30,085 nucleotides of DNA from an uncultured bacterium (GCA_963801165.1 CAWDDT010000002.1:1-30085), one strand, 5' to 3'; counted from the stretch's first letter, positions 1 through 27,959 are shown. A program made the numbers and translations. Notes: a model not told the origin generated them from the letters alone.

Positions 1-598
1 GGCCCGTGTCGTCGCGGACCTCGAGAGGATCCCATGAGCCTCCGGCCGAACCGGACAGGCTCACCTCCACCGTCCGGGTGTCCTGGCGAAGTCCGGTGCG
101 GAGCACCTTCAGGGCACTCTCTTTGGCGGACCAGATCGCATTGGCAACGACGTCAGCGTCGGCGCTGTGAGCGACGGTGAGTTGCTCGGTTGGTGTCAGG
201 TAGTCAGAGACGAAGGCATCGCTACGCGGTTCTACCAACTCCAGGTCGCATCCCACCCGCATCCGGCCGCCGACAACGGCGCACACCGCCCAGTCGGCGC
301 GATCCGTCATCGCAATGACGGCCCCGAGAGGCGCGCCATTCACGTGTGCCTCCGGTGCACCGTCAGCTGCGTTGCGGACCACAATCGTGCGCAGCGTCGG
401 AGGATCAAGAGCCAACCCCAGAGTCATGGCGATGGCCAGCTTGGCCGTCCAACGTCCGAGACGCGTCTCCGAGCGGCGTTTGGTGTAGCGCATCTGACCG
501 AGTCTTCTATCGAGCTGCTCATCCACCCAGTCGTCGTGTCCCGGTACGGCGCCCATGCCAACCGAGAGCCAGGTCACCCGCCCCGCGTCCACACTCAT
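1..598 (-). CDS. 4'-phosphopantetheinyl transferase, Sfp-type (3' end runs off window)
   Basis: Manual translation from ATG 598-596, which overlaps the carboxylase stop as ATGA: MSVDAGRVTWLS...RRSETRLGRWTAK...VGCDLELVEPRS...AIWSAKESALKVLRTGL, open to base 1. GxDxE and WxxKE(S/A)xxK are the Sfp-family motifs. Not in the ORF track because there is no stop in the window. Confidence 0.92.
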   Translation of the reverse strand, partial: MSVDAGRVTWLSVGMGAVPGHDDWVDEQLDRRLGQMRYTKRRSETRLGRWTAKLAIAMTLGLALDPPTLRTIVVRNAADGAPEAHVNGAPLGAVIAMTDRADWAVCAVVGGRMRVGCDLELVEPRSDAFVSDYLTPTEQLTVAHSADADVVANAIWSAKESALKVLRTGLRQDTRTVEVSLSGSAGGSWDPLEVRDDTG

Positions 599-3500
599 CC
601 AACCTCAACCCGGGCTTTGCCGCGCTCGATGGCAGCAACTAGGTAGGGCCGCAACTCCTCGATCGGCAGGATCACATCGATCGATCCCATCTCCTTCGCC
701 CGCTGAACAGAATGGATCCGATCGAACTCGGCAGCTACCTCGCCCCGCTTCTCCGCGGCAACCGAGGCACGCAATTCGTCGAGTTGGTGCCGCAGTTCGG
801 CACGGGTGGAGCCGGAGGCCTGCCCGACCTGTTTCTCCAGCGCGATCACGCGCGGATCGGCATCGGTCAGCGCGTGAACCTCAGGAACGAACACGACCGC
901 TGCGGCTGGTGCTCCTCCAATGACCGATGCCCGCGATCCTTCGAGAGCGGCGACTTCCATGTTCGCGTTGAGCGTCTTCGAGAACACGACAAAGGCGCCG
1001 CCGTGATAACGCGATACCACACAAAAGACGATCGGTCCCTCGAAGTTGACGATGGCTCTGCCGATCTCAGCGCCGTATTCCAGTTGCCAGCGCCGCATTG
1101 ATTCGGGAGATCCATCGAACCCGGAGAGGTTGGCAAGCACGACGAGCGGTCGATTACCCGAGGCGGCGTTGATGGCACGCGCGACCTTCTTCGAGGCAAC
1201 CGGGAATAGCGTTCCGGACGTCCATTGCAGCGGTCCGTCTGCGGGGACGAATCCGAGCCGCGGTATTGGTTTCGACTCGACGCCGAGCAGCGCCACCGGG
1301 TGTCCGCCAATAAAGGCATCCAGCACAACGGCGGTCTCGGCGTGCTGCATCCCGTGCCATCGCTCCATCATGGGAAGATCGGCGTCGGTCACCGCCGCCA
1401 TAACCCGACGGATCTCAAAGGGGAGCTTCCGGTCGGAATTGTGCTCCGACGAGAACACGTCGCCGATGGTGGTGAAGTCACCCCCATGGGGAGCCGTGCG
1501 CACGTCGCGGTCAAGAGGATCGCTGGTTGCTGCCCTCCGCGGGAAACGCTCCCCCGGGGCGGAATAGGTGAAGGAGTAGTGGTCGAGCAGGATGCGGCAA
1601 GCATCGGAGATCTCCGCGGCGAAGTACTGCGCCTGCCCGTTCGGACCCATGATGCGCTCATACCCGCCGATGCCACGGTTGTCTTCGGCAGATACCCCGC
1701 CCGAGTAGTCGAGAGCACGCTTCCCTGTGAGAACCATGGCAGCTGCATCGGTCATCACCAGGATGCCCTTTGTATGCATCAGCATCGTGGCTTCTGCGTT
1801 CCAATAAGGTTGCGCCCCAACGTTGACTCCGGTGACGATGACGTTGAGCTCATGGCCGTGCTGGGTGAATTCGACGATGCGACGCAACACGCGGGCGATC
1901 CAGTCCATGTTCTCAGTTCCGGACTCCATTGAGATACGGGCCCCGGCCGATACCGCGAACCACTCGAGCGGGATGCCTTGCTCCTCGGCGAGATCCATCG
2001 CGGCGATGATCCGCCGGCACTCCTGCTCCGCGACGTTTCCCATGCCACGGGATGGATCCCCGAGGATCATGACCCGCCGCATGCCCTCCGGATAACGGGC
2101 CGCAACGTTGCTCACGAGACCGATCACTACGTTGGACGTGTTCTGCCCGCGGGGGCGCGATACGGGCTCGAGTCGACCATCGGCGGACATGTCGTATTCA
2201 ACGAAGCTCGCGAGGAGCTTCCCTTCCTCGTCGGTGCCGTTCGCATGTTGGAGAATCTCAATGATCTCCCAAGGGTGGAACACGCCACGACGTCGGAGGC
2301 GGACGATGGACTGGGCGACGTCCGATAGCGGCTGCATCGGCCCATCCCCGGGCTCTCGCATTTCGAGTCGCAGGCGGCCGCCGCCGGGGTTGTTGACGAT
2401 GAGGACCTGATTCCGAATATTGCCTTCCCCGTCGACAACACGCCCCCGGACCAAGACCCGTTCGATCCCGAGCCCCTTCGTCTCACGGGCAAAACGGTAG
2501 ACGAGGGCTCTCACCTCATCGAGGCTGAAGTTGAGCACGGGCCACACATAGATGACGACGCGGTTCCAGTGCAGACGACGATGCGGCGCCAATCGTGACT
2601 GATATTTCCTGATCGGCCCGAGGGTCTCGCGAAAGACTCTCTCGAACTCGGGTACCCGCACTACGCGGCCGTCCTCGTCGCGGATAGGGGTTAGGTCGCG
2701 CACTTCCGCCTGGGCAAACAGCCGTTCGTCGCGCGGGTTCTCCTTGGCTATCGCGTGGAATAGGTAGATATCGGACAGGCTAGGGAGGCGTTTGTATTTG
2801 AAATTGGAGAGACGCCACAACTCCAGCCGTTCGGCCATCATCGGGTGCAGGTCCCGATACATGGTGTCCTCCACATACCCTCCATCGCCGGAGCGCCGGA
2901 ATGTGAAGTTCAGCACTCCGCTCATCGAAACGTCACTGCCCGGTCCCGAAACGGCAACAACGATGCGCCGCAGTTGTAGGTCACCCAACGCCGCATCGAG
3001 GGTTTCGCGGATTCGCTTCTCGGTGCGATCCGGCGAGCCGTGTACCCGCGACCGGCGTGCGTAGATCTCAACCGCTAGGTCGTACTCCGGGTCAATCTCC
3101 TCGAGTGCCTCGTGAAGCGCCGCAACCCCCCGTTGCAGGTCTTCGAAGGCAACGTGAGTACTGGCCAAATGAATCCGACGACCCTCGTAGACATATTCGG
3201 TGGTCGAGATGACAATCCCATCGATACGCAGAGTGGAGAATGGACCCAGCTCCCGAATTCGGTAATAGCGGCGTGTCATGATCTCGAGGAGAGCCTCTTG
3301 GAGACGGGGAGAGGCACCGGCAAACCGCAACGACAGCGTTGGTTTCAGCGGTTGCGAGCAGGCAACGAGCTCCTTCACGATGGCAGCACGATCCATTTGA
3401 TTTGGATGGTGCTCGAGCTGGGCCAGCCGCTCGTCGACCTTCTCGTATTCTCGTTGTCTGACCTCCTGGAGGAAGGGCAGGTCAAACGTGGCGTAGCGGA

Positions 3501-6129
3501 GCTCGAGAGCGATTTCGTGCACCGCCGGGTACCGATCTTGCGTCTCGTGGACTAGGCGGTCGAGGAGCTCGCGGAAACGCTCGTTCGGATCTCCGACGTG
3601 AGCAAGCCTGTCTTCGAGGACTGTGAGCAGAGCCGGTACCTGGGTCTGCATCCGGGCGTGAGATTTCGCCAAGCGGAACAGCGCCTCAACCAAATCCGGT
3701 GTGGTGTGATCAAGAGAGTCAACCCCGAAATGACCGAGCGCACGCAACAGCTGCTGGGTGAATTGCTCAGGCAGAGCCCCGCGATGCGCCCCGAGGTCCC
3801 GCATGTAGTCGAACAGGTACTCCTCGGTAGTTCTCCGCTCGCCATTTGCGCCCTCTGCCGGGAGCGTTCTCCGAAACAACGAGATCACGTCCACGAAGAT
3901 CTCGAGAGCCTCGTCCTCGAGGTCTCGGACTGTTCGGTCGGCGCCGCCGGCAGTGCAACGCTCGCTGCCGGGAGCGATCATCGAGTCGAGATGTGCGGGT
4001 TTGACATCCCACCCCAGCAGCATTCTTTGCAGGGCCGCGAGATAGTGCTGGCATCTATGGTGAGTGACGTCGTCTGCGGAAAGGGCGTAGGGCCCGAGGT
4101 CCACCTCTTCATGGACGGGGTCGACGTCGGTCTCGTCTCCCGGATCGATGACCAACAGCGCGGTACCCGAACCGACCTGGGTGTTCTTTCTGGCCAGCAC
4201 CTTGCGGATCGTGCCGGCGAATTCGGCATTGATCGACGTCTCCATCTTCATCGCTTCGATCACCGCCAGACGGTCACCAGCCTTGACTCGATCACCCGGC
4301 GAGACGGCGATCGCTACCACAACCGCAGGCGACGGTGCCCGGACTATGCCGCCTTCGTCGTGAGCAATGCGGTGGGCAACACCGTCGACCTCGACGAAAT
4401 GGTTGGCGCCGTGGACAACCGAAATGACCCGGTATTCGCGCCCCGCACAGCTCAGCCTCTTTCCCGCACGTCCGAGATGGTCGAGATTCGCTTCGATGAT
4501 GTGCCCCGCTGAGGTGACCCGGTAACTCGTCGGCGCAGTCCTCTCGACTGTGAGCCCGTAGCGACGGCCACGGAAGCGAAGCTCGATCAGTTTTCCCGAC
4601 CCGGGCAGGATCTCGGGGCGCCCATGATTTGCGGTGTCCCGGAAGGCCATGATCTCGGTCGCAATCTGTTCGCGGTAGCCGTCGATGGCGGCGGCAATCA
4701 GCGCAGCCCCCGCCAGCGACGTATTCACCGAATCGGACGCAACCAACCGATCAACCCAGTCGGTGTCGTAGTTACCCGAGATGAAGTCGGGATTGGTGAG
4801 CGTGGCCTCCAAGAAGGCCTTGTTGGTTGCTCCCTCGCTGACGATGACCCTGCTTTGGCGGAGAGCACGCAGCAATCTGGCGCGGGCCTCCTCACGGCTG
4901 CGGCCGTATGCGATGACCTTTGCGATCATGGAGTCGAACTCGGGAGGAATCTCGTCGCCTTCCTCAACTCCGGAGTCGACCCGGATGCCCGGTCCGGCCG
5001 GGAATCGGAGCAGCTCGATCTTCCCTGCGGACGGGAGGAACTCCCGGTCGGGATCTTCGGCATTGAGCCGTGCCTCGATCGCATGGCCTTGGGTTGACGG
5101 TGGGTCTCCGTCGAGTGTCCCACCTCGGGCGATGTGGATCTGTAGCTTCACCAGATCCAGCCCCGTGGTCACTTCCGTTACCGGGTGCTCCACCTGGAGC
5201 CGGGTGTTGACCTCCATGAACGAGAAGGTGCCATCGGAGGTGTCGTACAGGAACTCGACAGTGCCGGCGCCGACATATCCGGCTTTGCCTCCCAGGCGGG
5301 CAGCTGCCTCCCTGATCTCTGCGTCCTGAGAGTCCGACAGGGCGGGAGAGGGGGCCTCCTCGATGATTTTCTGATTGCGTCGCTGCACCGAGCAGTCCCG
5401 CACTCCGACCGGCCAAACGGTCCCAGTGGCGTCTCCTACGATCTGCACTTCTATGTGGCGTGCGGCGACAACCACCTTTTCGAGGAAGACGGTGTCATCT
5501 CCGAAGGCGTTGAGGGCTTCCGCACGGGCCCGCGTGAACGATTCCTCGACCGACTCCGGTGTGTCGATGCGCCGAATTCCCCTGCCGCCGCCGCCGGTCG
5601 TTGCTTTGACCATGACCGGGTATCCGAGATGTGAGGCTATGCGGGTGGCCTCGGCCACCGTGTTCACGGCGCCCCCGCTCCACGCGGCGACCGGGACACC
5701 GGCCTCGGTGGCGATGTGCTTGGCTGTGATCTTGTCGCCGAGCCGGCGCATAACGTCGGGGTTTGGGCCGATATGGACGATATCGAGCCGCTTGCAGAGC
5801 ACCCCGAACTCAGGGTCCTCGGCGACGAATCCCCAGCCAACCCAGGCCGCATCTGCCTCGCTTTCGGTGAGGGCTCGCTCTAGCAGGTCGTAGTCGAGGT
5901 AGGCGGCCTTGCGGTTGCCGCCGGAGTCTCGGGAGGTGGCGGAACCCAGGCTGAAACGGATGTCGGCTTCCCGGACGAACAGCGCGTTCTCGTCGGAGTC
6001 GGTATAGAAGGCGATCGTCTTCAGCTCGGTCCCGAACTCGGAGTTGTATTCCGCTACGGCGTTGATCAGGCGTACGGCCGGCTCGCCTCGATTGACAATG
6101 GCGATCCGCTCAAAGCCCGTGATGGTCAC
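595..6129 (-). CDS. Single-chain biotin-dependent acyl-CoA carboxylase (BC-BT-BCCP-ACC central-CT), 1844 aa
   Basis: BC motifs NRGE, GGGGRG, RDCSVQRRNQKIIEE and FMEVNTRLQVEHPVTE. Biotinylation motif EAMKM (Lys628, nt 4246-4248). Central region LEIMTRRYYR and LELWRLSNF. CT motifs SAGARI, ANLSGFDG and GGAFVVF. GTG start overlaps the PKS stop (GTGA). Confidence 0.93.
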   Translation of the reverse strand: MTITGFERIAIVNRGEPAVRLINAVAEYNSEFGTELKTIAFYTDSDENALFVREADIRFSLGSATSRDSGGNRKAAYLDYDLLERALTESEADAAWVGWGFVAEDPEFGVLCKRLDIVHIGPNPDVMRRLGDKITAKHIATEAGVPVAAWSGGAVNTVAEATRIASHLGYPVMVKATTGGGGRGIRRIDTPESVEESFTRARAEALNAFGDDTVFLEKVVVAARHIEVQIVGDATGTVWPVGVRDCSVQRRNQKIIEEAPSPALSDSQDAEIREAAARLGGKAGYVGAGTVEFLYDTSDGTFSFMEVNTRLQVEHPVTEVTTGLDLVKLQIHIARGGTLDGDPPSTQGHAIEARLNAEDPDREFLPSAGKIELLRFPAGPGIRVDSGVEEGDEIPPEFDSMIAKVIAYGRSREEARARLLRALRQSRVIVSEGATNKAFLEATLTNPDFISGNYDTDWVDRLVASDSVNTSLAGAALIAAAIDGYREQIATEIMAFRDTANHGRPEILPGSGKLIELRFRGRRYGLTVERTAPTSYRVTSAGHIIEANLDHLGRAGKRLSCAGREYRVISVVHGANHFVEVDGVAHRIAHDEGGIVRAPSPAVVVAIAVSPGDRVKAGDRLAVIEAMKMETSINAEFAGTIRKVLARKNTQVGSGTALLVIDPGDETDVDPVHEEVDLGPYALSADDVTHHRCQHYLAALQRMLLGWDVKPAHLDSMIAPGSERCTAGGADRTVRDLEDEALEIFVDVISLFRRTLPAEGANGERRTTEEYLFDYMRDLGAHRGALPEQFTQQLLRALGHFGVDSLDHTTPDLVEALFRLAKSHARMQTQVPALLTVLEDRLAHVGDPNERFRELLDRLVHETQDRYPAVHEIALELRYATFDLPFLQEVRQREYEKVDERLAQLEHHPNQMDRAAIVKELVACSQPLKPTLSLRFAGASPRLQEALLEIMTRRYYRIRELGPFSTLRIDGIVISTTEYVYEGRRIHLASTHVAFEDLQRGVAALHEALEEIDPEYDLAVEIYARRSRVHGSPDRTEKRIRETLDAALGDLQLRRIVVAVSGPGSDVSMSGVLNFTFRRSGDGGYVEDTMYRDLHPMMAERLELWRLSNFKYKRLPSLSDIYLFHAIAKENPRDERLFAQAEVRDLTPIRDEDGRVVRVPEFERVFRETLGPIRKYQSRLAPHRRLHWNRVVIYVWPVLNFSLDEVRALVYRFARETKGLGIERVLVRGRVVDGEGNIRNQVLIVNNPGGGRLRLEMREPGDGPMQPLSDVAQSIVRLRRRGVFHPWEIIEILQHANGTDEEGKLLASFVEYDMSADGRLEPVSRPRGQNTSNVVIGLVSNVAARYPEGMRRVMILGDPSRGMGNVAEQECRRIIAAMDLAEEQGIPLEWFAVSAGARISMESGTENMDWIARVLRRIVEFTQHGHELNVIVTGVNVGAQPYWNAEATMLMHTKGILVMTDAAAMVLTGKRALDYSGGVSAEDNRGIGGYERIMGPNGQAQYFAAEISDACRILLDHYSFTYSAPGERFPRRAATSDPLDRDVRTAPHGGDFTTIGDVFSSEHNSDRKLPFEIRRVMAAVTDADLPMMERWHGMQHAETAVVLDAFIGGHPVALLGVESKPIPRLGFVPADGPLQWTSGTLFPVASKKVARAINAASGNRPLVVLANLSGFDGSPESMRRWQLEYGAEIGRAIVNFEGPIVFCVVSRYHGGAFVVFSKTLNANMEVAALEGSRASVIGGAPAAAVVFVPEVHALTDADPRVIALEKQVGQASGSTRAELRHQLDELRASVAAEKRGEVAAEFDRIHSVQRAKEMGSIDVILPIEELRPYLVAAIERGKARVEVG

Positions 6130-9100
6130 TCCTTCCTGGTCATTGCGTCGCGTAGTGGGGCTGCGAGATCGGAGTCGATCGGCGCCGGCAGTTGCACCGT
6201 CGTGTAGCCGGACATCGCAACAAGCGCTGACCCCTTCTCATCGGCGACGACGGCGTCGAACACGCCTCCATCGGCAGGGTGAACGACGGCGCATAGGTTG
6301 CCTTTTGCCTTTGTCACATCTCCTGCGTACACCACCCTATCGATGTGGCTAGGCAACGCCATCGTTCCCGCCGTTCCGATCTCCCAGATCCCCGCAGTCT
6401 GGAAAGCCAGCTCGGTGAGCCGTGGGGTTGTCACCAACGGCCGATCGTCGGGAACATGGTTGTGGGGAAGGTTGTGGGCCATGGCGCCTACGACCATGTC
6501 GCCATCCCTCCATGCTCCATCGACGACCTGGTAGGTGGGTCCGTGGAAATAGATCGCGTAGATGTCGCGTGGGCCGACCGTGCCGTCCGGTCGGGTCGGC
6601 ACCGTTGCTGGTTTGAGCCTCGGTTTGTCGTCCCCGAGCCGGATGCGGGCGGTGAAGTGAACTGTCCGCTGCGGCTCGCCCTGATTGGCAAGTGTACGGA
6701 CTCCAATCAGCTGACCAATGCCGACGATGCCATCGTCGTCGGCCGTGTACACAACCTCCACGGTGAGTACCCGTGGCTCGCCGCGATAGAACTTGAACGG
6801 CACGAGGAAGTTGATATCTTCGATCGCGGTGACGGTGAGTTGGGGGAATCCGGCCCGTGCTGCTGCGGCGAAGGCCTCTATTCCCATGACTCCAGGGAGA
6901 ACCGGGGTCCCGTCGATCTGATGATCGAACAGGAATGGCTGCTCGGACGGATCGAGCCGTACAGTCGCCCGCAGTCCGCTGTAGATGCCGAAACTCTCGA
7001 CCTCGCCTAGCATCACCGATCCGATGGCGCCGCCGCCTAGGGACTCTGTATCGAGGCCCCCGCTGGGGTGGAATTCGTCTGTCAGAACACCGAGCCGTTT
7101 CCCGACCACCATCTCTCCGCCGTGCGCCCGGCTCGTTATCTCCCTGCGCACTATCGGGATTCCTGCGACCGCGGGGAGCATGTCGATCCCCGCCGCCTTC
7201 ATCACGGTCGGGATCGAGCCACGGGTTGCCATACCGATGTCGCCCCAGGCGGTCCAGTCGATCGCCAAACCGAGCGTCCGTGCCTCATCAGAGCGGAGGC
7301 TCGCGGCGAACTTGCACAGCAGATCGTTCGCAGCCGAATAGTCGGATTGGCCGTTGTTGCCGAACCGGCCCGCCACTGAGCTGAACACGACGGCCGAGCG
7401 GATCGGTGTGTCGCCGAGTCCCTTGACCAGGTTGAACCATCCGTCGGCTTTCACGTCGAAGACCAGGTCGTACTCCTTGCGATCCTTGTCCGGGAGCAAC
7501 CGGCTTATCTCGAGCCCACCGGCGTGGAGTAGAACATCGACTTTCTGATGGTCGTGGCGAATCTGTTCCATCACGGCCCCAACCGCGTCGCCATCCCTCA
7601 GATCAACGCTGTGATAGGCGGCCGTCCCGCCGAATCCTTCAACCGCTTTGATTGTGCTCAAAGCCGCGTGTCGGCGCTCGATTCCGGCGAGCTGTCGCTC
7701 GACAATCGCCGGTGTTGCTTTTTCGCCCGCCGTCTTGAGACGATCGAAGATGGTCCGCTTCAGACCGTCCCTGTCGACACTGAACGCGGCAATGTCGGGG
7801 TCGGCTCTGTCGGGCTCAGGAGTGAGGTCGAGCAGATGGAATGTGCCTCCCGACGCTTTTGCCAGGTCGGCGGTTATCGCCGACACGATGCTCCCGGCGG
7901 CTCCGGTGACAACGAAGACAGAATCCGCACCTAGCTCGATAACGGCCGGTTCGGTGGGAAGGTCTTGTTCGGTGAGACCGATAGTCCAGCGTCGTCCTTC
8001 GTTGCGACCGATTTCGACGGCACCGGGATCGACGAGAGTCTCTTCGATCAGCGCGTCGGCCAGCGCGGCGGTCCTGCGGCTTGCGGAGAAGTCCACCGTC
8101 TTCACCAGTGCCTCGCTTTTCTCACGCTTGTACGCCTTGGTGAATCCGGTGACGGCACCACCCATCGGGGCGGTCGCTCCTTCAGCTCCATAGCCGTGGA
8201 ACCCGCCAAGACGCGTGGCGGAGACCAGGAAGGTGCCCTCCGCACCGACGACGTCGTAGAGATGCCGCATGGTTTCGTAAAGGAGCTTGACGCGACGGCG
8301 CAAGCTCTCCCGCCAGCCGGCGAGATCCAACTCTGCAATAGGCAGCTCACTGTCGAGCGCGGCCAGCCAGTAGACGCCGGTGATCTCACCATCGCTCGAG
8401 AATCCGTCGAGCCGAGAACGCAGCTCCTCCGCATCCGGGCTGTCGTCGATGGCGAGGACGGTGACTCCCAGCTTGGCTAGCCGCTTTAGGAGCGCCTTTC
8501 CGACCCCACCCTCGTCGAGCATGACAACGACCCGGCTGTTGTTGTCGAGTGTCACTCCGCTCGGGACACAGTGCTCGGCGGCCGGCCGCAAGAACGGTGT
8601 CGGTATGCGCCGCGGGATGTTTGCCGCCGCCTCGTCGTCACCCTCTAAGAGCCCGACCGGTAGTCCGATCGGATCTGGGCTCTCAACCCCCTTTGGCGTC
8701 GACGCCGTGGCGACACCGCCGGCGAGGTCGGGTCGTTTTTCGTAGACGAAGGCGATGACGTCGTTCAGGGTGGGGTAGTCACGCAACGCCAGGCTGTCGT
8801 CGCGTTCGATCCCGTATTCCTGACGGATGGCAGCAAACGTCTCTGCCTGTTTGACCGTGTCCACCCCGAGGTCTGCTTCCAGGTCGAGGTCGAGGTCCAA
8901 CATGTCGGGTGGGTAGCCGGTCTGCTCAGATACCAACGCCAACACCTGATCCGCCACCGCGTCGCCTTCAGGCTCAACCGGGACGGCAACCACCGCTGCT
9001 GCTGGAGCGGTCGGCGTCTCCTGGCGGGCTGCGAGGTCGGGTCGTTTTTCGTAGACGAAGGCGATGACGTCGTTCAGGGTGGGGTAGTCACGCAACGCCA

Positions 9101-12100
9101 GGCTGTCGTCGCGTTCGATCCCGTATTCCTGACGGATGGCAGCAAACGTCTCTGCCTGTTTGACCGTGTCCACCCCGAGGTCTGCTTCCAGGTCGAGGTC
9201 GAGGTCCAACATGTCGGGTGGGTAGCCGGTCTGCTCAGATACCAACGCCAACACCTGATCCGCCACCGCGTCGCCTTCAGGCTCAACCGGGACGGCAACC
9301 ACCGCTGCTGCTGGAGCGGTCGGCGTCTCCTGGCGGGCTGCGAGGTCGGGTCGTTTTTCGTAGACGAAGGCGATGACGTCGTTCAGGGTGGGGTAGTCAC
9401 GCAACGCCAGGCTGTCGTCGCGTTCGATCCCGTATTCCTGACGGATGGCAGCAAACGTCTCTGCCTGTTTGACCGTGTCCACCCCGAGGTCTGCTTCCAG
9501 GTCGAGGTCGAGGTCCAACATGTCGGGTGGGTAGCCGGTCTGCTCAGATACCAACGCCAACACCTGATCCGCCACCGCGTCGCCTTCAGGCTCAACCGGG
9601 ACGGCAACCACCGCTGCTGCTGGAGCGGTCGGCGTCTCCTGGCGGGCTGCGAGGTCGGGTCGTTTTTCGTAGACGAAGGCGATGACGTCGTTCAGGGTGG
9701 GGTAGTCACGCAACGCCAGGCTGTCGTCGCGTTCGATCCCGTATTCCTGACGGATGGCAGCAAACGTCTCTGCCTGTTTGACCGTGTCCACCCCGAGGTC
9801 TGCTTCCAGGTCGAGGTCGAGGTCCAACATGTCGGGTGGGTAGCCGGTCTGCTCAGATACCAACGCCAACACCTGATCCGCCACCGCGTCGCCTTCAGGC
9901 TCAACCGGGACGGCAACCACCGCTGCTGCTGGAGCGGTCGCGGCTGCCTCAACTTCGTGGGGTCTGCGCGCCACATCGGCGCTGGGCGCCGCTGCTTTCC
10001 CGTAGTCCCGCACCCGCAACGTGCGCTTCACGATCTCGACCTCGGCGGCAGGAAGCCCCGTTGCGGTGCGCAGCCAGTCATGCCAGCGGGCACGATCGAC
10101 CAAACGGGTGTCGTAGCCAAGCGCATCCGGAGCCGGGCGTGCTGCCCCGGCTGGACGGGTGTTCCGATAGAGAGTCAGGCTGATCTGCGAGCCGAAACCG
10201 GCGCCGAGCCGGAGTGCGTATTGGATGGGATAGGAGCCGCCACGGGCGAGGTTGAGAACGCCAAGATCCGGATCGGGTTCCCTGAAGTTGGGTACCGGCG
10301 GGACGATGCCCGTTTCCATGGCCTTGATAGCCAGTACATCCTCGACACCTACCGCCATAGCGTGCCCGGTGTACCCCTTCGTGTTGGAAATGACGATCTG
10401 GTCGGCCGATGAGCCGAATACGAATCGGAGTGCGTCGACCTCTGCCTGAGCGCTCCCTCCCCGTGCCGGTGTATAGGTTTCGTGGGATACGAAAACGGTG
10501 TTGGGAGCAATCTCGTGGCGATCGATGCCCCACCGACGCTCGGCGTCGGAGACCAGGGCTTCCATGGCACGGCAGATGTGCTCGGGATCGAGTCTGCTCC
10601 CATGGAATGCGCTGTTGGCCGTGAAGGTGCTGAGTACCTCGGCGATCGGCTCGAGACCACGGGCGCGCACAGAGTCGCGGTGCTCTACGACAATCGCGGC
10701 AGCGCCCATGCCGAGAATCAACCCGTGACGCCTGCGATCGAAGGGCACCGCGGCGTCCTCGACCAGCTCGTCGGTGGCGGCGGCGCCCATCGTCAAGAAT
10801 CCCGCTCCAATCCACTCGAGAAGCTGATCGCTGGTGACATCATCCCCTGAGATGATCACTACGCGTTCGCACCGTCCCAATCGAATCCAGTCTTCGGCAA
10901 TGGCGACGGCCTGGGTGGTGCTGGCACAGGCCGCGTTGATATGGGTGTTCGGGCCTTTGGCTCCGATGTACTCGGCGAACTGCGCATGGGCAAAAGCAAG
11001 CGCCCGGTACAGGAACTTGCGATCGAATGTGTATCCATTCTCTCCGATCTCGGTCTCGAGCTCAGCAACGCGACGCTGCATCGCAGCGGCGAGGCCCGAG
11101 GAGGCACCGCCGTCGGCGATCCCGGCGGTCAATGCCTTCAGCTCGGCGAGACGTTCTTCGACGGCATGGGCGGTGTAGTAGCGATCGGTCTCTTCCACCC
11201 ACGCATTGGAGCCGGGGAAGGCCGAGGCGAAGATCACGCCGGTCGTGGCTTGGTACGGCTCGGGGAGCATCCAACGCTCAGCGAGCTTCGCTCCGGTGGT
11301 TGTGTCCTTGTAGTGCATGACCAACGGGATACCGGCGTCGCGCAATGCATCGAGCCCTGCCCCGATGGCCAGCTCGCTGGAGCGATCAAGTGTTCCCGCA
11401 CGTTCCTGGGGGAAGCCAAACTCGGCGACAAGGTCGATGGTGCCACCCCGGCCTGCGAGCTTGATCACCTCCGACTCGCTCTCGATAGTCTCGAAGTGGC
11501 CACCGCCTGATTCCGATTTAACAAGACGGGTTATGTGCTTGGCCGCGATCTTCTGCCGCTGCTCATTCGGGATCGAACTGATGAACACCTTGCCCCGCAG
11601 CAAGTCGGGGATCTTGTCATCGCCAAATACCCGGTCGCCGCCGGGTAGCCCGAGCCCGGCACCGGTGACCACCACCGGTTCGTCGATGGGGAGGTCGGTT
11701 CCGGGGGCAGGTCGCGCTGGAGCCGGCCGCTGCTGGCCCCCGAAGATGGCTGCCCCTTTCTCTAGAAAATCTGCAAATAGGTGACCGAGTTCCACGTACA
11801 CATCACCGTCGCCCTGAGCCGACACTGCTGGCTGCGCCCCGGCAGCGGTCCGAGGAGGTGCCGGCCGATGCTCGCGCACGGGCCGGGGGGCGCTCCTTGT
11901 TGGCTCCGGGGTCACACCCTCCGAACGTCGTCCCACCCCGAGACCGGCCGCGTACAGCCCACACAGGCCCTGGTTGAACGAGACGTTGTCGCCTAGCTTT
12001 GGGTGATTGGTGAAGAGAGTCACGACCTCGTCATCGGCGCCGAGCACATCGTCGGCCAATCCCTGGAGGGCCTTCTTCGGACCGACCTCGACAAACACCC

Positions 12101-14729
12101 GGCAGCCTGCTTCGTGGAGAGTATGCAGACCACTGACGAACTGAACCGGCGAAGCGATCTGCCTGCCGAGAATGTCGATCATCCTCGGGACCACGTTTGG
12201 TCCCATCGGGTAAAACTCACCGTCGACGTTGGCGACGATCGGAATCGCGGGCGACTCGAGTCGAAGCCTATCCAACAGGTCTCTCAATGGGATGGCAGCC
12301 GGCGCAACTATCTCGGTGTGAAAGGCATGGCTGACCGGCAGCGGGATGACTTGTGCGCCCGCCTGTGCCAACCGATTGGCCGCCTCGGTCACACCTGCAG
12401 TTGAACCACCAATTACCGCTTGCTTCGTGCTGTTGTAGTTGGCGACGACGACGTAGTCGTCCACCTCCTCTGTGACACGCACAATGTCGTCGAGAGGGGC
12501 GAACACTGCAGCCATCCGTCCCTTGTCCTCGACTTCGACCGACGCCATCTCCCTGCCTCGTCCGGCGACCGCCTCTAGGGCATCCTCGAAGGGGAGGGCG
12601 CCGGCCGCAACCAGGGCACCGTATTCACCGAGGCTATGGCCCATGACCATGTCCGGATAGATGCCATATGCTGCCAGTAGATTGGTGAGGGCATCGTCGA
12701 CGGCGAGTACCGCAGGCTGTGTGATCTCCGTCTGCCGCAGCTCCTGGTCGGCGGCTTGCATCGCCGCCTGATCGTCGGGATCGGCAAATATGTAGGCGCT
12801 CAGCGGCTTGCCAAGCACCGGCTCCATGATCCTGTCGGCTTTCTCGAACGCACTGGCGACGATCGGTTCCGACTTGCGCAAGCCATCGAGCATGTTTACG
12901 TATTGCGATCCCTGGCCGGTGTAGAGAAATGCCACCATGCCCGGGGTACCGGTGCCCCGGAACACTCCCTGGTTGCGTAGGGCTTTCCACATGGGCGGGC
13001 TGTCGGCATCGATAGCCTTGATGGCCTTTTCGGCCCGGGCGGCGAGATCAACAGCATCGCCGTAGTCGATCGCAACCCGAGCCGCGGCGCGTAGGTCCGC
13101 CTCCAGGGGTGGCTCCGGGGGCGGTGCCGCGCCGTCGACAGCGGCTTCAGCAATCACCTCGAGACGGTGCCGGACTTGTTCCATAGTCGCGGCTCCCACA
13201 ACGAGAGCGCCCCGCAGCGGTGCCTTCAGCTCTACATCGTTCACATCAGATGTGGGACGCGGGGCTACAACGACGTGCGAGGAAGATCGATCTCCGACCC
13301 GGAGCCGGCCGGGAACGTACTCCTCCAACACAATGTGGAAGTTCGTACCGCCAAAGCCAAACGCGCTGACTGCCGCAGTCCGAACCTGACCCGGCTCGGT
13401 CTTCCACTCGCGCAGTTCCTTGTTGATGAAGAGCGGCGAGCGCGAGAAATCGATGCTGGGGTTGGGCCGGGTACCGCCAAGACTCGGCGCAAGCAGCTTC
13501 TCATCGAGCGACATCACAGCTTTGAGCATTCCGGCAGCTCCGGCGGCACTCTTCAGGTGCCCTATGTTGGACTTCACCGAACCGAGGGCGACAGATCCGG
13601 GCCGCAGGTCGAGATCGGCAAACACTCGCGACAGGCTCTCGACTTCGACCACGTCGCCGACTCGTGTCGAGGTGCCGTGGCCTTCCACATACGTGGCCGA
13701 GCTAGGCACGAGGTTGGCGTTGCGCCAGGCGCGGGAGATGGCGAACTCCTGACCAATCGGGTTGGGCGCGGTGATTCCCTTGCCACGACCGTCGCTCGAT
13801 CCACCGAGTCCGCGGACCACGGCGTAAACGTGGTCGCCATCACGCTCCGCGTCTGCGAGCCGCTTCAGCAGGAGCACTGCGGCACCCTCACCCATTACGA
13901 ACCCATCCGCACCGTCGTGGTACGGCCGCGTGCCCGTTGCCGAAAGTGCGCCGATTTTGCAGAACTTGATGAAGCTGGGGACGCCCATATTGGCGTCGAT
14001 GCCGCCGGTCAGCACCGCGTCGTAATCACCGCGCTCCAGGCCTCCGATCGCGGCGCTGATGGCGGCAAGCGCCGAGGCGCATGCCGCGTCGACGATGAAG
14101 TTTGGACCATGGAAGTTGTATAGATTCGCCACCCGACCCGCGATGATGTTGCTCAGCTCACCCGGCATTGTGTCTTCGGTGATACTCGGGAATCTGTCTC
14201 GCACACCTCCCAGCAGCTCAGTCAGGATCGATTCCCGCACGGCAGCGTCCAGCGCCGCAAAGGTGGGCGCGTTGCTCAGCTCTTCGGCATACTCCGGGTA
14301 GTAGGCACGGAGGGCGGTCAGATAGTGCATCTCGCCTGCCATGGCATTTCCGAGCACAACTGCCGTGCGGTCGGGATCTAGCGGTCGATCGGGATAGCCG
14401 TAGTCGAGGAGCGCTTCGCGGGATGCAGTAATCGACCACTTCTGCGTCGGGTCCATCGCATCGCTGACCTTGGGAGGTATCGGCATCCGCCACTCGAGTG
14501 GGGAGAAGTCGACATCTTGGACCCACCCGCCAATGATCGAATACGTCTTGTCGGGGGCCTTGGGGTCGGCGTCGTAGTAGAGATTCGGGTCCCAACGGCC
14601 GGCAGGCACGTCGCTGATCGAGTACCTTCCCGATTTCAGGTTCTCCCAGTAGGTAGCGGCGTTGGGTGCGTCCGGTAATACCGCGCCCACTCCAACTACT
14701 GCGACTGCTCTCTCGACCTGTTCCGGCAT
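6126..14729 (-). CDS. Iterative type I PKS/FAS, Pfa-like: KS-AT-KS-ACP x4-KR-DH, 2867 aa
   Basis: KS1 DAACAS/EGHGTST/KSNIGH. AT GQGSQY/GHSLG/HAFH (malonyl-type fingerprint). KS2 NAACAS/SHETYT/TKGYTGH. Four DLEADLGVDTVKQ carrier repeats. KR TGAAGSI...FSSVAG...DYSAAN. DH HQIDGTPVLP. GGGGAG RBS upstream of ATG 14729. No ER or TE motif recognised. Confidence 0.93.
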   Translation of the reverse strand: MPEQVERAVAVVGVGAVLPDAPNAATYWENLKSGRYSISDVPAGRWDPNLYYDADPKAPDKTYSIIGGWVQDVDFSPLEWRMPIPPKVSDAMDPTQKWSITASREALLDYGYPDRPLDPDRTAVVLGNAMAGEMHYLTALRAYYPEYAEELSNAPTFAALDAAVRESILTELLGGVRDRFPSITEDTMPGELSNIIAGRVANLYNFHGPNFIVDAACASALAAISAAIGGLERGDYDAVLTGGIDANMGVPSFIKFCKIGALSATGTRPYHDGADGFVMGEGAAVLLLKRLADAERDGDHVYAVVRGLGGSSDGRGKGITAPNPIGQEFAISRAWRNANLVPSSATYVEGHGTSTRVGDVVEVESLSRVFADLDLRPGSVALGSVKSNIGHLKSAAGAAGMLKAVMSLDEKLLAPSLGGTRPNPSIDFSRSPLFINKELREWKTEPGQVRTAAVSAFGFGGTNFHIVLEEYVPGRLRVGDRSSSHVVVAPRPTSDVNDVELKAPLRGALVVGAATMEQVRHRLEVIAEAAVDGAAPPPEPPLEADLRAAARVAIDYGDAVDLAARAEKAIKAIDADSPPMWKALRNQGVFRGTGTPGMVAFLYTGQGSQYVNMLDGLRKSEPIVASAFEKADRIMEPVLGKPLSAYIFADPDDQAAMQAADQELRQTEITQPAVLAVDDALTNLLAAYGIYPDMVMGHSLGEYGALVAAGALPFEDALEAVAGRGREMASVEVEDKGRMAAVFAPLDDIVRVTEEVDDYVVVANYNSTKQAVIGGSTAGVTEAANRLAQAGAQVIPLPVSHAFHTEIVAPAAIPLRDLLDRLRLESPAIPIVANVDGEFYPMGPNVVPRMIDILGRQIASPVQFVSGLHTLHEAGCRVFVEVGPKKALQGLADDVLGADDEVVTLFTNHPKLGDNVSFNQGLCGLYAAGLGVGRRSEGVTPEPTRSAPRPVREHRPAPPRTAAGAQPAVSAQGDGDVYVELGHLFADFLEKGAAIFGGQQRPAPARPAPGTDLPIDEPVVVTGAGLGLPGGDRVFGDDKIPDLLRGKVFISSIPNEQRQKIAAKHITRLVKSESGGGHFETIESESEVIKLAGRGGTIDLVAEFGFPQERAGTLDRSSELAIGAGLDALRDAGIPLVMHYKDTTTGAKLAERWMLPEPYQATTGVIFASAFPGSNAWVEETDRYYTAHAVEERLAELKALTAGIADGGASSGLAAAMQRRVAELETEIGENGYTFDRKFLYRALAFAHAQFAEYIGAKGPNTHINAACASTTQAVAIAEDWIRLGRCERVVIISGDDVTSDQLLEWIGAGFLTMGAAATDELVEDAAVPFDRRRHGLILGMGAAAIVVEHRDSVRARGLEPIAEVLSTFTANSAFHGSRLDPEHICRAMEALVSDAERRWGIDRHEIAPNTVFVSHETYTPARGGSAQAEVDALRFVFGSSADQIVISNTKGYTGHAMAVGVEDVLAIKAMETGIVPPVPNFREPDPDLGVLNLARGGSYPIQYALRLGAGFGSQISLTLYRNTRPAGAARPAPDALGYDTRLVDRARWHDWLRTATGLPAAEVEIVKRTLRVRDYGKAAAPSADVARRPHEVEAAATAPAAAVVAVPVEPEGDAVADQVLALVSEQTGYPPDMLDLDLDLEADLGVDTVKQAETFAAIRQEYGIERDDSLALRDYPTLNDVIAFVYEKRPDLAARQETPTAPAAAVVAVPVEPEGDAVADQVLALVSEQTGYPPDMLDLDLDLEADLGVDTVKQAETFAAIRQEYGIERDDSLALRDYPTLNDVIAFVYEKRPDLAARQETPTAPAAAVVAVPVEPEGDAVADQVLALVSEQTGYPPDMLDLDLDLEADLGVDTVKQAETFAAIRQEYGIERDDSLALRDYPTLNDVIAFVYEKRPDLAARQETPTAPAAAVVAVPVEPEGDAVADQVLALVSEQTGYPPDMLDLDLDLEADLGVDTVKQAETFAAIRQEYGIERDDSLALRDYPTLNDVIAFVYEKRPDLAGGVATASTPKGVESPDPIGLPVGLLEGDDEAAANIPRRIPTPFLRPAAEHCVPSGVTLDNNSRVVVMLDEGGVGKALLKRLAKLGVTVLAIDDSPDAEELRSRLDGFSSDGEITGVYWLAALDSELPIAELDLAGWRESLRRRVKLLYETMRHLYDVVGAEGTFLVSATRLGGFHGYGAEGATAPMGGAVTGFTKAYKREKSEALVKTVDFSASRRTAALADALIEETLVDPGAVEIGRNEGRRWTIGLTEQDLPTEPAVIELGADSVFVVTGAAGSIVSAITADLAKASGGTFHLLDLTPEPDRADPDIAAFSVDRDGLKRTIFDRLKTAGEKATPAIVERQLAGIERRHAALSTIKAVEGFGGTAAYHSVDLRDGDAVGAVMEQIRHDHQKVDVLLHAGGLEISRLLPDKDRKEYDLVFDVKADGWFNLVKGLGDTPIRSAVVFSSVAGRFGNNGQSDYSAANDLLCKFAASLRSDEARTLGLAIDWTAWGDIGMATRGSIPTVMKAAGIDMLPAVAGIPIVRREITSRAHGGEMVVGKRLGVLTDEFHPSGGLDTESLGGGAIGSVMLGEVESFGIYSGLRATVRLDPSEQPFLFDHQIDGTPVLPGVMGIEAFAAAARAGFPQLTVTAIEDINFLVPFKFYRGEPRVLTVEVVYTADDDGIVGIGQLIGVRTLANQGEPQRTVHFTARIRLGDDKPRLKPATVPTRPDGTVGPRDIYAIYFHGPTYQVVDGAWRDGDMVVGAMAHNLPHNHVPDDRPLVTTPRLTELAFQTAGIWEIGTAGTMALPSHIDRVVYAGDVTKAKGNLCAVVHPADGGVFDAVVADEKGSALVAMSGYTTVQLPAPIDSDLAAPLRDAMTRKE
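8722..9940. repeat. Tandem 309-bp repeat, about 3.9 copies, encoding four ACP-like domains plus Ala/Pro linkers
   Basis: Units start at 8722, 9031, 9340 and 9649. I see no differences between copies. The alternative-frame ORFs at 8765, 9074 and 9383 translate identically, which supports identity at synonymous sites. Confidence 0.95.
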
Positions 14730-14774: not shown

Positions 14775-16430
14775 CTAACTCCGGTTGTAGAGCGCGTCCG
14801 CAATCGCATCCATGTCGGAGATCAGACCCGACTGGGCGTCCCTGATAGCCTCGAGCCCTACGGCTGCCCCGAACCGGGCTGTGTCGATGACTCCTGGTTC
14901 GGCGGCACCGAGCACCCATCGGGTGCCGTCGAGCGCCACCCTGGCGGCAGCTTCCCGGGCGAACACGCGAGACATTGTCGCCAGTGTCTCGGCGCTGAAA
15001 CGACCGTCGGTTTTCTTAGGCAGATCATCCGATTGCGCGGCGGCGGCCCGCCGCGCCATAGCTCCGGCACACTCAACGTATGCCACCAGTTCGCCCAGGC
15101 GGAACAGCACATGCTGGTTGCGGGTGAGACGGTGGGCTCTGGCACCCTCCATCACCTCAGCCAACCCGTGGGCGGCGAGAGCGGCGACATCCGCTCCGCA
15201 GCGTCGGGCGGTTGTTGCCAACTGCTCGAGACCGGCACCCTGATCGTGGAAGAAGGCGCCGCGACTCTTGAGGTGCTCCTGCCAGCGATCTCGCGCCATT
15301 GTCATCTCGAGGACCTCGGAAGTGCCTTCGTAGATCGTCGTGATCCGGACATCCCGCTTGATCTTTTCGACCATGTACTCCTTGGTGTACCCGTATCCGC
15401 CAAGAGCCTGGATTGCGTCTTCGGCGGCCTTATTGCCTGCTTCGCTGCCCATGTACTTGGCGATGGCACCTTCGGTGTTCAGACGACCTTCCCCCCGGTC
15501 CAGCCGCAGTGCAGTTTCCTCGATGTAAGCGCGGGCAGCCTCGAGCCTCACCACGTTGGGCACTATGAGCTTGTGGGTGTAGCCCTGCTTCTCGGAAAGG
15601 GGTGCACCTCCCTGGATCCGCCCTACCGAGTATGGGATGGCACGGTCCATCGCCGCCCAGCCGGCGCCGAGACCGAAGGCTGCCACCATCAAGCGGGTGT
15701 AGCCGAAGACTTCTTGCGCCTGCGTCAGTCCGAGCCCCTCGGCGTCACCGACCAGACGATCGGCGCCGACTTTCACATCCTGAAGAGACAGGGCGGCGGT
15801 GTTGCTCGCTCTGATGCCGTGCTTGTTCTCGGGCTTGCCGTGTTCGAAACCTTCGGTATCTCGCTCGACGATGAACCAGGTGGGCCCGTCGGGTGCCAGT
15901 GCCAGGATGGTGTAGACGTCGGCGTAGCCACCGTTGGAGATCCACTGCTTGTTGCCGTTGATCACGTATCCCGTGACCTCTTCTCCATCCATGACGCGCT
16001 TAGCCGTTGTTCGCAAGGCAGCGAGGTCGCTGCCGGCTTCCGGTTCCGTTGCTCCGTAGGCCATCAGGAGACCTTGTTCGCCGATGAGGCTCATCCAGTG
16101 GGCCTTCTGCCCTTCGGTTCCCCCAAAAACGATCGGATCGCTTCCGAGGAAGGTGGCGAAGACGCTGGTGGCAACGCCGAGGTCAATCCGCGCCAGTTGC
16201 TCGCAGATTCGATACACATCGAAGGACGATGCGCCCAATCCCCCATACTCCTCCGGAATGAAGAGCAGACTCACGCCGAGGTCCGCAAGCATGGTGCGGA
16301 CGATTTCTTCGGGGAACTCATCCCGAGCGTCGAGTTCGATCAGGGACGAGTCCGGGAGTTGATCGTTTGCGAATTCCCTGAGCGTCTTGAGCACTAGGTC
16401 GAAAGTGTCGCGATCTAGCCCCGTGTCCAT
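14775..16430 (-). CDS. Acyl-CoA dehydrogenase with about 170-aa C-terminal extension
   Basis: ATEPEAGSD, GNKQWISNG, KHGIRAS, LGGYGYTKEY and IYEGTSEV. Start placed at ATG 16430 behind GGAGGGAG. Ends 45 bp before the PKS start. Confidence 0.92.
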   Translation of the reverse strand: MDTGLDRDTFDLVLKTLREFANDQLPDSSLIELDARDEFPEEIVRTMLADLGVSLLFIPEEYGGLGASSFDVYRICEQLARIDLGVATSVFATFLGSDPIVFGGTEGQKAHWMSLIGEQGLLMAYGATEPEAGSDLAALRTTAKRVMDGEEVTGYVINGNKQWISNGGYADVYTILALAPDGPTWFIVERDTEGFEHGKPENKHGIRASNTAALSLQDVKVGADRLVGDAEGLGLTQAQEVFGYTRLMVAAFGLGAGWAAMDRAIPYSVGRIQGGAPLSEKQGYTHKLIVPNVVRLEAARAYIEETALRLDRGEGRLNTEGAIAKYMGSEAGNKAAEDAIQALGGYGYTKEYMVEKIKRDVRITTIYEGTSEVLEMTMARDRWQEHLKSRGAFFHDQGAGLEQLATTARRCGADVAALAAHGLAEVMEGARAHRLTRNQHVLFRLGELVAYVECAGAMARRAAAAQSDDLPKKTDGRFSAETLATMSRVFAREAAARVALDGTRWVLGAAEPGVIDTARFGAAVGLEAIRDAQSGLISDMDAIADALYNRS

Positions 16431-16475
16431 GTGCTCTCCCTCCACAGCCGCGTAGGCAGATGGTCGTGTGTGTCA

Positions 16476-16488
16476 AACGTAATACGTT
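16476..16488. promoter_or_regulatory. Short palindrome in the divergent intergenic region, possible operator
   Basis: AACGTA-A-TACGTT, adjacent to a minus-strand TTGACA (16471-16476). An AT-rich patch in GC-rich DNA. Confidence 0.3.
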
Positions 16489-16642
16489 GAGGCGTCCTTG
16501 GCGAAGGAACTTGCGATACCACTCAGCCGAGGCGAGCTGCCGGCGCTACCAGTCGACTTCGCCGACTGTTACTCTGGACAGTAGGGCTTCAGGACGAATA
16601 CGATCGACCTCCTCCCTCTCGCACCCCCTCCGCAGGAACAAG

Positions 16643-18748: not shown

Positions 18749-18874
18749 GGGATGACCCTACCGCTCGCAAGTCCTAGCGGTCGAGCGCTCTGTTGCGGTG
18801 GCCCGGAGCTGTTTGCTGGCACGTGGAGCCTCGCGGCTCGGACCTGCCCGCCCAGCGCGCGAGATTCCGGGTGT

Positions 18875-18920
18875 TCGGACTCGTACCAAAGGTCGCAGAT
18901 TCGAACCCTGCCCTCGCTAC
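18875..18920 (+). pseudogene. Degenerate 3' half of an initiator tRNA-Met (att-like scar)
   Basis: TCGGACTCGTACCAAAGGTCGCAGATTCGAACCCTGCCCTCGCTAC resembles the tRNA-fMet 3' half (GGCTCATAACCCxxAGGTCGCAGGTTCRAATCCTGxCCCCGCTAC, recalled consensus). T-arm GCAGA-TTCGAAC-CCTGC. No 5' half or D-arm. Confidence 0.55.
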
Positions 18921-18957
18921 GAAGAAGCCCGTGGTAGTCCTACATCTACCAGCGAAC

Positions 18958-19575: not shown

Positions 19576-19691
19576 AGGTCTCTCCAATGGAAATGGGATT
19601 CGGGTGTCCGTGTGTCCAGCATAAATCTTGCGAGCGGGCGTCCCAGGTTGGGTTTCGTGAGAGCAGTCGCCGTGTCTCGTAATGTGTGCGT

Positions 19692-21662: not shown

Positions 21663-21694
21663 ATGGTCGCACCGCCGGGGAGCCTCGACGGCAG

Positions 21695-21732
21695 TTCGGG
21701 TGGTCCCGCCGATAGCCACGGGACCACCCGAA
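21695..21732. terminator. Stem-loop between convergent genes, probable bidirectional terminator
   Basis: Perfect 14-bp stem TTCGGGTGGTCCCG / CGGGACCACCCGAA with a 10-nt loop. No U-tract. Confidence 0.65.
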
Positions 21733-21756
21733 TGATGGGTCATGCGATCGTGGTCT

Positions 21757-22035: not shown

Positions 22036-22255
22036 GTCTTGTCCTTCCTGACATACCCTGAGGGGCGGCTCGCCGCCGGACGGATCTCTGCAGCTGGCGA
22101 GCCGATGAGTTGCGCTGCCTCGGGATCGGGCTTTCCGATCCACTGAGCACAAGTATCTCGAGCGACCGTTTGCCCAGCGTTTGCGAGTCTTGACCCGATT
22201 ACTGCAGACTCGAGTTCCTTGTGGTGCGCCCGGGCTGCGACTGTCCGATCGGGAG

Positions 22256-25309: not shown

Positions 25310-25334
25310 GTAGGGTCGCAGGCTCGGACCCTAC
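25310..25334. terminator. Hairpin overlapping the permease stop codon
   Basis: GTAGGGTC-N9-GACCCTAC inverted repeat. Confidence 0.3.
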
Positions 25335-27924: not shown

Positions 27925-27959
27925 CTGTGCTCCTTGTCGGCTTGCGGAATCCGGTGTGT

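Follow-up and report, generated by a model that had tools for sequence, protein, structure and literature searches.

The question raised by this locus is what a single-chain acetyl-CoA carboxylase (ACC) of eukaryotic build is doing in a bacterium, and which pathway it feeds. The gene lies at 595..6129 on the minus strand of a 30,085-nucleotide stretch of DNA from an uncultured bacterium (GCA_963801165.1, CAWDDT010000002.1:1-30085), here called the window, which lies at the very start of contig C2 (from base 1) in a genome of 4.55 Mb. The reading frame is open for 1844 aa, from a GTG start to a TGA stop, and Pfam matches mark its product as a homomeric (single-chain) ACC. It is the third gene in a minus-strand run of four that encodes, in order, an acyl-CoA dehydrogenase, a PfaA-like synthase, the ACC and a 4'-phosphopantetheinyl transferase (PPTase). 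An enzyme of the same kind, SACE_4237 of Saccharopolyspora erythraea, was characterised in 2019 and described by Livieri et al. (2019, PMC6491548) as the first homodimeric multidomain ACC from a prokaryote. The window protein almost certainly belongs to the bacterial homomeric ACC family of which SACE_4237 is the characterised member. It is probably a biotin-dependent ACC of this family that provides a dedicated supply of malonyl-CoA to the synthase of its cassette.

The chain is ordered biotin carboxylase (BC), biotin carboxyl carrier protein (BCCP), central region and carboxyltransferase (CT), and its six Pfam domains are arranged as in eukaryotic ACC. The BC domain (4750..6114, minus strand as for all domains of this gene; aa 6-460) is matched almost full length by PF00289, PF02786 and PF02785, as Biotin_carb_N (aa 6-127), CPSase_L_D2 (aa 132-340) and Biotin_carb_C (aa 352-460), with the GGGGRG loop at aa 179-184. 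It is followed by a segment (4345..4749; aa 461-595) that no Pfam model matches and that is conserved in a 48-row alignment; from its position, this segment may be the BC-CT interaction (BT) region. The BCCP domain (4147..4344; aa 596-661) matches Biotin_lipoyl (PF00364) at 58.1 bits, and the match includes the biotin attachment motif EAMKM at aa 625-629. We take Lys628 to be the biotinylation site, as the lysine of the MKM motif bears biotin in this family. The central domain (2233..4080; aa 684-1299; PF08326) is modelled as a helical part at the N-terminus with two alpha/beta domains after it, and the CT domain (628..2208; aa 1308-1834) matches Carboxyl_trans (PF01039) at 117.9 bits. This order agrees with an earlier sequence-only reading of the same DNA, which had placed BC, BCCP and CT in a single chain; the roughly 600 aa it had estimated between BCCP and CT measure about 640 aa (BCCP end at aa 661, CT start near aa 1300), and all motifs it had named were located where it had put them. 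These are ALLEIMTRRYYR at aa 946-957 (window 3259-3294), EDTMYRDLHPMMAERLELWRLSNF at aa 1087-1110 (window 2800-2871) and DERLF at aa 1134-1138 (window 2716-2730) in the central domain, and RPRGQN (aa 1325-1330) and YPEGMR (aa 1346-1351) in CT. When aligned by phmmer against the PDB, the ALLEIMTRRYYR, RDLHPMMAERLELWRLSNF and DERLF stretches paired with their fungal counterparts in the ACC of Chaetomium thermophilum, bearing out the proposed likeness to eukaryotic central-domain motifs.

The central domain was assessed by sequence and by predicted fold. Pfam ACC_central matched the window protein in two stretches (E 5.4e-21; 75 bits against a cut-off of 23.2), the better of which, aa 1043-1216, corresponds to positions 490-660 of the 726-position profile. 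This was the only ACC_central match in the source genome, and none was found in 14 well-known control genomes. A sequence search of the PDB with aa 663-1300 returned 11 matches at E values up to 10, all of them eukaryotic ACC; the Chaetomium thermophilum enzyme was best at 4.2e-6, and the human chains scored only 0.4. An AlphaFold model of the same residues, predicted from the 48-row alignment, had a mean pLDDT of 86.4 and a pTM of 0.82. Foldseek placed eukaryotic ACC at ranks 1-31 of the PDB (yeast central domain 5i6e, E 2.7e-24), with the first unrelated chain at 1.7e-4. VIA-align likewise gave ACC at ranks 1-17, led by human ACC1 (8xkz_C; Z 31.5, 536 residues aligned, rmsd 5.3) and yeast ACC (5csl_A; Z 31.0, 529 residues, rmsd 5.5), with model residues 22-637 lying over yeast 793-1521 and the next best match at Z 6.8. 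Identity to the eukaryotic central domains is 15-21%. As modelled, the entire central domain is homologous to the eukaryotic one. The earlier proposal that this is a compact single-chain ACC of eukaryotic style, with a genuine central domain, is thus upheld by four lines of comparison, namely the Pfam profile and the predicted structure set against yeast Acc1, both of which it had named as checks, together with the PDB and Foldseek searches.

The flanking catalytic domains were examined separately, using quick tree searches in which two fungal sequences stood for the eukaryotes. Among the 35 PDB matches to CT (aa 1301-1844), the best 20 were all eukaryotic ACC CT (9.9e-22 to 5.3e-16); the best non-ACC chain was 12S transcarboxylase (5.7e-9), and PccB-type chains scored lower still. 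In a CT tree rooted on the two PccB-like CTs of the source genome, the bacterial family, the two fungal ACCs and a further protein, P0125, formed one group on a long branch from the outgroup. Both results support a placement in which the window CT appears closest to eukaryotic ACC CT and not to PccB-type chains. Nor is the window ACC of the heteromeric PccB/AccD type, as its CT is fused into the chain and the PccB-like genes of the genome lie elsewhere. The BC domain behaved differently: searched alone against the PDB, it scored best with bacterial-type chains (best match 2vpq, 349.6 bits) and not with eukaryotic ACC. In a BC tree with 12 canonical BC domains as outgroup, however, BCs of the bacterial homomeric enzymes joined those of the two fungal ACCs in a clade (SH-aLRT 97). 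This pattern would arise if BC had evolved slowly in the bacteria and fast in the eukaryotes.

P0125 (2461 aa) was considered as a eukaryotic or intermediate outgroup and rejected, as its BC best matches canonical bacterial BC and groups with alpha-subunit BCs. Its central region and CT are of the homomeric type, a long N-terminal extension precedes the BC, which begins near residue 512, and no Biotin_lipoyl match was found in it at E 1e-5; it is possibly an independent or chimeric fusion.

Proteins of this build are widespread. A search with the central region recovered at least 903 proteins among 8000 scored candidates, and all 120 listed relatives appear to carry PF08326 in precomputed domain annotations; those with names come from Acidimicrobiia, Ilumatobacteraceae, Terriglobales and Actinomycetota. 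When one genome was scanned for each species, confirmed relatives turned up in at least 584. Within the phylum of the window, ACC_central is a minority trait, found in 22 of 400 other genomes sampled evenly. The exact sequence of the window ACC was absent from the protein collection searched; over the central region, the closest relative there shares 79% identity, and the nearest relatives of the gene come from Acidimicrobiia metagenome-assembled genomes (MAGs), at 67-72% identity. SACE_4237 has been described as homologous to eukaryotic ACC from end to end, "including the conserved central region", a bootstrap of 100% supports the grouping of its CT with eukaryotic CT, and the fusion leading to eukaryotic ACC has already been argued to be a bacterial event (Livieri et al. 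2019, PMC6491548). The sequence-only reading had held that the central domain is missing from the single-chain carboxylases characterised in bacteria, which is true of the long-chain acyl-CoA carboxylases (LCCs) but not of SACE_4237, and the novelty it implied does not stand, since an enzyme of the same kind was described in 2019 and relatives are widespread (PMC6491548). Beyond that paper and one sentence in Shulse and Allen (2011), no work on a bacterial homomeric ACC or on an ACC in a PfaA-like cluster was found in a literature search that took in few subscription journals.

The setting of the window gene is little described. The GTG start of ACC and the TGA stop of the upstream synthase share four bases (GTGA), as do the TGA stop of ACC and the ATG start of the PPTase (ATGA); start/stop overlaps of four bases are usual in co-translated genes of a single operon. 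The upstream partner (6126..14729, minus strand; Pfam, NCBIfam) is a PfaA-like iterative fatty-acid/polyketide synthase of 2867 aa, in which Pfam finds a ketosynthase (KS), an acyltransferase (AT), a second KS-like domain, four acyl carrier proteins (ACPs), a ketoreductase (KR) and a dehydratase (DH), and no enoyl reductase domain. Among NCBIfam models, the omega_3_PfaA subfamily matches it best, at 929.6 bits and under the cut-off of 1010.1. The AT matches the malonyl transferase FabD at 203 bits (NCBIfam) and contains an HAFH motif, which we take to be typical of malonyl-specific ATs. The DNA for the four ACPs (window 8722-9940) is a tandem repeat with a 309-bp unit, present in 3.9 copies that are 100% identical and free of indels; such perfect repeats may reflect recent homogenisation or handling by the assembler, and the true ACP number could differ. 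The first gene of the cassette (14775..16445, minus strand; Pfam, NCBIfam) encodes an acyl-CoA dehydrogenase family protein of 556 aa, whose Pfam domains end at residue 385, leaving it about 170 aa longer than the covered part. The last is the PPTase (2..598, minus strand; PF01648), incomplete at the contig end.

To see how far this arrangement recurs, the neighbouring proteins were compared at the 80 best related loci, which are the ones most like the query, so that the window's own type is over-represented in the counts. The synthase upstream and the PPTase downstream were both present at 33 loci, the synthase only at 3, and the PPTase only, with the upstream flank missing, at another 3; flanks were too short to judge at 9, and the remaining loci are taken up below. 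Linked loci occur in Acidimicrobiia, Actinomycetes (including cultured Nonomuraea, Actinoplanes and a Mycobacterium sp.), Thermoleophilia, Vicinamibacteria and Myxococcota, and also in deltaproteobacterial MAGs and one MAG labelled KSB1 or Deferribacteres; the phyla Actinomycetota, Acidobacteriota and Myxococcota are thereby represented. Unlinked loci come mainly from Pseudonocardia, Actinomycetospora, Gordonia, Phytoactinopolyspora and one group of Acidobacteriota. Wherever the flank extends that far, a dehydrogenase gene lies upstream of the synthase, and the four-gene order is kept in all six relatives that were fetched. Two metagenomic proteins, P0123 and P0124 (2084 and 2093 aa), carry ACC and PPTase in one chain, the PPTase domain being C-terminal. 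The CT of P0124 failed the E 1e-5 threshold in the Pfam scan and lies on a long branch in the CT tree; this protein may be degenerate or mis-called. In one relative (G016, locus L087, C7:30000-49999), the synthase matches in several pieces and different frames beside an ACC and a PPTase that look intact, which hints at frameshifts, gene decay or errors in sequencing.

The gene content of the source genome and its relatives bears on whether the homomeric ACC is an accessory or a core enzyme. Three genes with CT domains were found in the source genome: a PccB-like beta subunit (656 bits to PF01039) that adjoins a BC-BCCP alpha subunit, a divergent second beta subunit (495 bits), and the window ACC. 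The beta- and alpha-subunit genes lie on contigs C4 (696-700 kb) and C6 (342-344 kb). BC domains number two, in the alpha subunit and in the window ACC, and the single alpha subunit presumably serves both beta subunits. Among 40 relatives, ACC_central scored above cut-off in 7; it was present in 5 of the 14 other genomes from the same genus and in 7 of the 24 from the same family. All seven also carry the synthase, on a shared contig in six; the seventh assembly (G008) is fragmented. Neither ACC_central nor the synthase was found in 31 relatives, the synthase occurs without ACC in one (G001, at a contig end in a genome 77% complete), and in another (G036) the sole ACC_central match, within a 263-aa frame, falls below threshold. 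These counts are descriptive, as related genomes are not independent observations. Five relatives that lack the ACC, 92-100% complete, keep CT genes scoring about 655-670 and 493-498 bits, like the two of the source genome. Because of this presence pattern and of the CT genes kept by the ACC-less relatives, the homomeric ACC of the window's lineage is, as far as gene content tells, accessory, being present or absent together with the synthase, and the conserved core role falls to the alpha/beta carboxylase.

A working model can be assembled from what is known of the family. BC would use ATP and bicarbonate to carboxylate the biotin carried by Lys628 of BCCP, which would then swing to the CT site, where the carboxyl group would be passed to acetyl-CoA to give malonyl-CoA. 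The central domain would act as a non-catalytic scaffold that spaces BC from CT within a dimer; CT would hold this dimer together, and the central domain would give it its shape. As the third of four co-transcribed genes, ACC would be the cassette's own source of malonyl-CoA, from which the FabD-like AT would load malonyl units onto the four ACPs after their activation by the PPTase; the alpha/PccB-like beta acyl-CoA carboxylase of the cell would meanwhile handle primary metabolism. That the synthase uses the malonyl-CoA of this ACC is proposed because of the gene context and the match of its AT to FabD. The sequence-only reading had already assigned the ACC to the synthase, and comparative evidence now backs this assignment in the form of synteny, start/stop overlaps, co-occurrence and ACC-PPTase fusions.

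Several observations weigh against this account. All functional assignments were made by homology and gene context. The term "eukaryote-style" would apply to the central domain, CT and architecture and not to every domain: the best 60 PDB matches of BC are ordinary BC, pyruvate carboxylase, methylcrotonyl-CoA carboxylase and propionyl-CoA carboxylase chains, and eukaryotic homomeric ACC is absent from these 60. Pfam ACC_central covers only part of its profile, so that homology of the whole central domain is claimed on a predicted structure. The ACC family as a whole is not bound to the cassette: at 32 of the 80 loci, flanks were adequate and neither the synthase nor the PPTase was present, and in an even sample of the phylum the synthase stood beside ACC at 3 of 20 fetched loci and not at the other 17. 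Moreover, no Escherichia coli-type AccA or AccD was found in the source genome beyond the two PccB-like CTs, both of which contain weak AccA matches. Finally, the S. erythraea homologue SACE_4237 is an essential housekeeping ACC (PMC6491548).

The last of these points favour an alternative in which the window protein is the main housekeeping ACC for ordinary fatty-acid synthesis, like SACE_4237, and its adjacency to the synthase is incidental or a matter of shared regulation. SACE_4237 is essential for growth (PMC6491548), the source genome is without E. coli-type ACC subunits, and many homologues stand without a synthase. However, the gene is present in just the minority of genus and family genomes counted above, and there it is found where the synthase is found. 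Relatives without it retain PccB-like CT genes, from which their malonyl-CoA for growth must come, and the codon overlaps and ACC-PPTase fusions bind the ACC to the cassette. A housekeeping role is therefore unlikely for the window gene. A dedicated supply of malonyl-CoA to the synthase could also be mistaken as to the substrate: the enzyme might act mainly on propionyl-, butyryl- or a longer acyl-CoA and provide a branched extender or a starter to the synthase. SACE_4237, a homodimer, carboxylates acetyl- and propionyl-CoA at similar efficiency (PMC6491548), and the substrate of the window ACC cannot be read from its sequence with the methods used. Set against this are the CT, which is closest to those of eukaryotic acetyl-CoA carboxylases, and the synthase AT, with its match to FabD and its HAFH motif; a different main substrate is accordingly given a low probability, somewhat below that of a housekeeping role. 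An artefact, whether eukaryotic contamination of the assembly or a decayed gene, can be dismissed in view of the even G+C (0.60-0.65 throughout the window), the 1844-aa open frame with codon overlaps to bacterial neighbours, the hundreds of bacterial genomes with relatives and an identity to fungal ACC of only 25-27%.

With dedicated supply to the cassette as the favoured account, the history of the family can be considered. It is made up of a synthase-free Actinomycetes clade and a mostly cassette-linked remainder, to which the window gene belongs. In a full-length tree of 106 rows rooted on the two fungal ACCs, the synthase-free clade (47 rows, SH-aLRT 100) was sister to a cassette-linked Solirubrobacterales clade; most other lineages were linked, and at least five changes of context were seen. 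A BC tree with close outgroups gave the same picture, and in both trees the root fell among linked lineages, whereas the CT tree placed the root beside the synthase-free clade, with weak support. The nesting of the housekeeping Actinomycetes clade inside cassette-linked lineages, at which two quick trees had hinted, was not retained: the CT tree disagreed, and an AU test on the BC data did not reject a tree with the 53 other bacterial rows as one clade (p-AU 0.725), this constrained tree being 14.3 log-likelihood units better than the free quick tree. The fungal ACCs fell outside the sampled bacteria in all three trees, which says little for two sequences on a long branch. It is conceivable that the bacterial homomeric ACC arose or first spread as the malonyl-CoA supply of a mobile secondary-lipid-synthase cassette crossing phyla, and that such a cassette gene is the ancestor of the essential housekeeping ACC found in Pseudonocardiaceae and other Actinomycetes and perhaps of the eukaryotic enzyme as well. 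Because the CT tree disagrees and the AU test keeps the sister relation, we regard this scenario as doubtful.

Upstream of the cassette, a divergent gene on the plus strand (16460..18115) has a weak NMO match (PF03060 at 55.6 bits) and possibly encodes a PfaD-like enoyl reductase. Its start and that of the dehydrogenase gene on the minus strand, as listed, are 14 bases apart, which is too tight for two promoters; the true start of the NMO-like gene is probably later, because the NMO-like gene of a relative aligns only from residue 77 of the window frame. As a cassette member this gene was rejected, since it lies beside the cassette in only one of the six fetched relatives; the 10-kb flanks of the 80 loci end before it and do not bear on this. 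The rest of the window (18793-30085) appears, from its Pfam matches, to be unrelated to the cassette. It contains a 300-aa open reading frame that no Pfam or NCBIfam model matched (18793-19695), followed by genes that Pfam assigns to a GH127 beta-L-arabinofuranosidase-like protein (19686-21662), a short-chain dehydrogenase/reductase (SDR; 22256-23155), an SRPBCC/polyketide-cyclase-like protein (23343-23786), a pyridoxal phosphate (PLP)-dependent enzyme (23963-24970), an ABC-2 transporter pair (25331-27044) and a DUF4097 protein (27037-28059).

The window protein is thus one more sequence in a family known since 2019, and the origin of eukaryotic ACC is already discussed in print. The recurrence of the cassette across phyla, with ACC-PPTase fusions, is a modest addition. 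It indicates that a sizeable share of the family consists not of housekeeping enzymes but of ACCs that are members of a four-gene cassette seen in several phyla, in some cases fused to its PPTase. Accounts of the origin of homomeric ACC must place these cassette-linked lineages, which are not discussed with the 2019 tree in its accessible part (PMC6491548). The cassette also offers a testable handle on the product of Type R synthases, described below, and a compact, self-contained module of malonyl-CoA supply and synthase could interest pathway engineers.

Compared with known systems, the window ACC is most similar to SACE_4237, with which it shares a single chain of about 200 kDa, the BC, BCCP, ACC central region and CT domains, a CT that groups with eukaryotic ACC, and a bacterial host (PMC6491548). 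The two differ in that SACE_4237 is an essential housekeeping enzyme for which the accessible passages describe no neighbouring synthase (PMC6491548). The window protein lies in the mostly cassette-linked part of the tree, whereas Pseudonocardiaceae homologues form a separate clade without a neighbouring synthase, to which SACE_4237 is assumed from its taxonomy to belong. Eukaryotic homomeric ACCs (yeast Acc1 and human ACC1; 5csl, 8xkz) have the identical domain order and a central domain that can be aligned over about 530 residues. The window enzyme is more compact than the two fungal ACCs, at 460 versus 510 aa for BC, 638 versus 747-755 for the central region and 540 versus 712-714 for CT. 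The single-chain LCC of Mycobacterium is also a bacterial biotin carboxylase with all activities in one chain. LCCs are described by Livieri et al. (2019, PMC6491548) as hexamers without the central region and with another domain order, unlike the window ACC. The acetyl-CoA carboxylase multifunctional enzyme AccADCB (PDB 9kkm, 9w4a; 1517 aa, solved structure) likewise unites all activities in one bacterial chain; it matches the window ACC only in the BC part (its residues 982-1392) and, with its other domain order, represents a separate fusion. No chain named LCC or AccADCB occurs among the 35 CT matches in the PDB.

The cassette itself is closest to the "Type R" secondary lipid synthase cluster, in which a pfaA homologue of the form KS-MAT-CLF-ACP(3-6)-KR is followed by a PPTase gene, and which was reported from Acidobacteria, Elusimicrobia and Chloroflexi with a product not known in 2011 (Shulse and Allen 2011, PMC3098273). 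The window synthase fits this pattern in its KS, AT, second KS-like domain (a putative CLF), four ACPs and KR and in the PPTase, and adds a DH domain. In the Type R cluster of Koribacter versatilis, an ACC gene described as "part of the ACC complex" lies between the pfaA homologue and the PPTase gene, the same order of synthase, ACC and PPTase as in the window; according to that paper, the other four Type R clusters do not contain it (PMC3098273). What was noted in 2011 in one genome only is here a regular member of the cassette, found at the 33 fully linked loci together with an acyl-CoA dehydrogenase gene.

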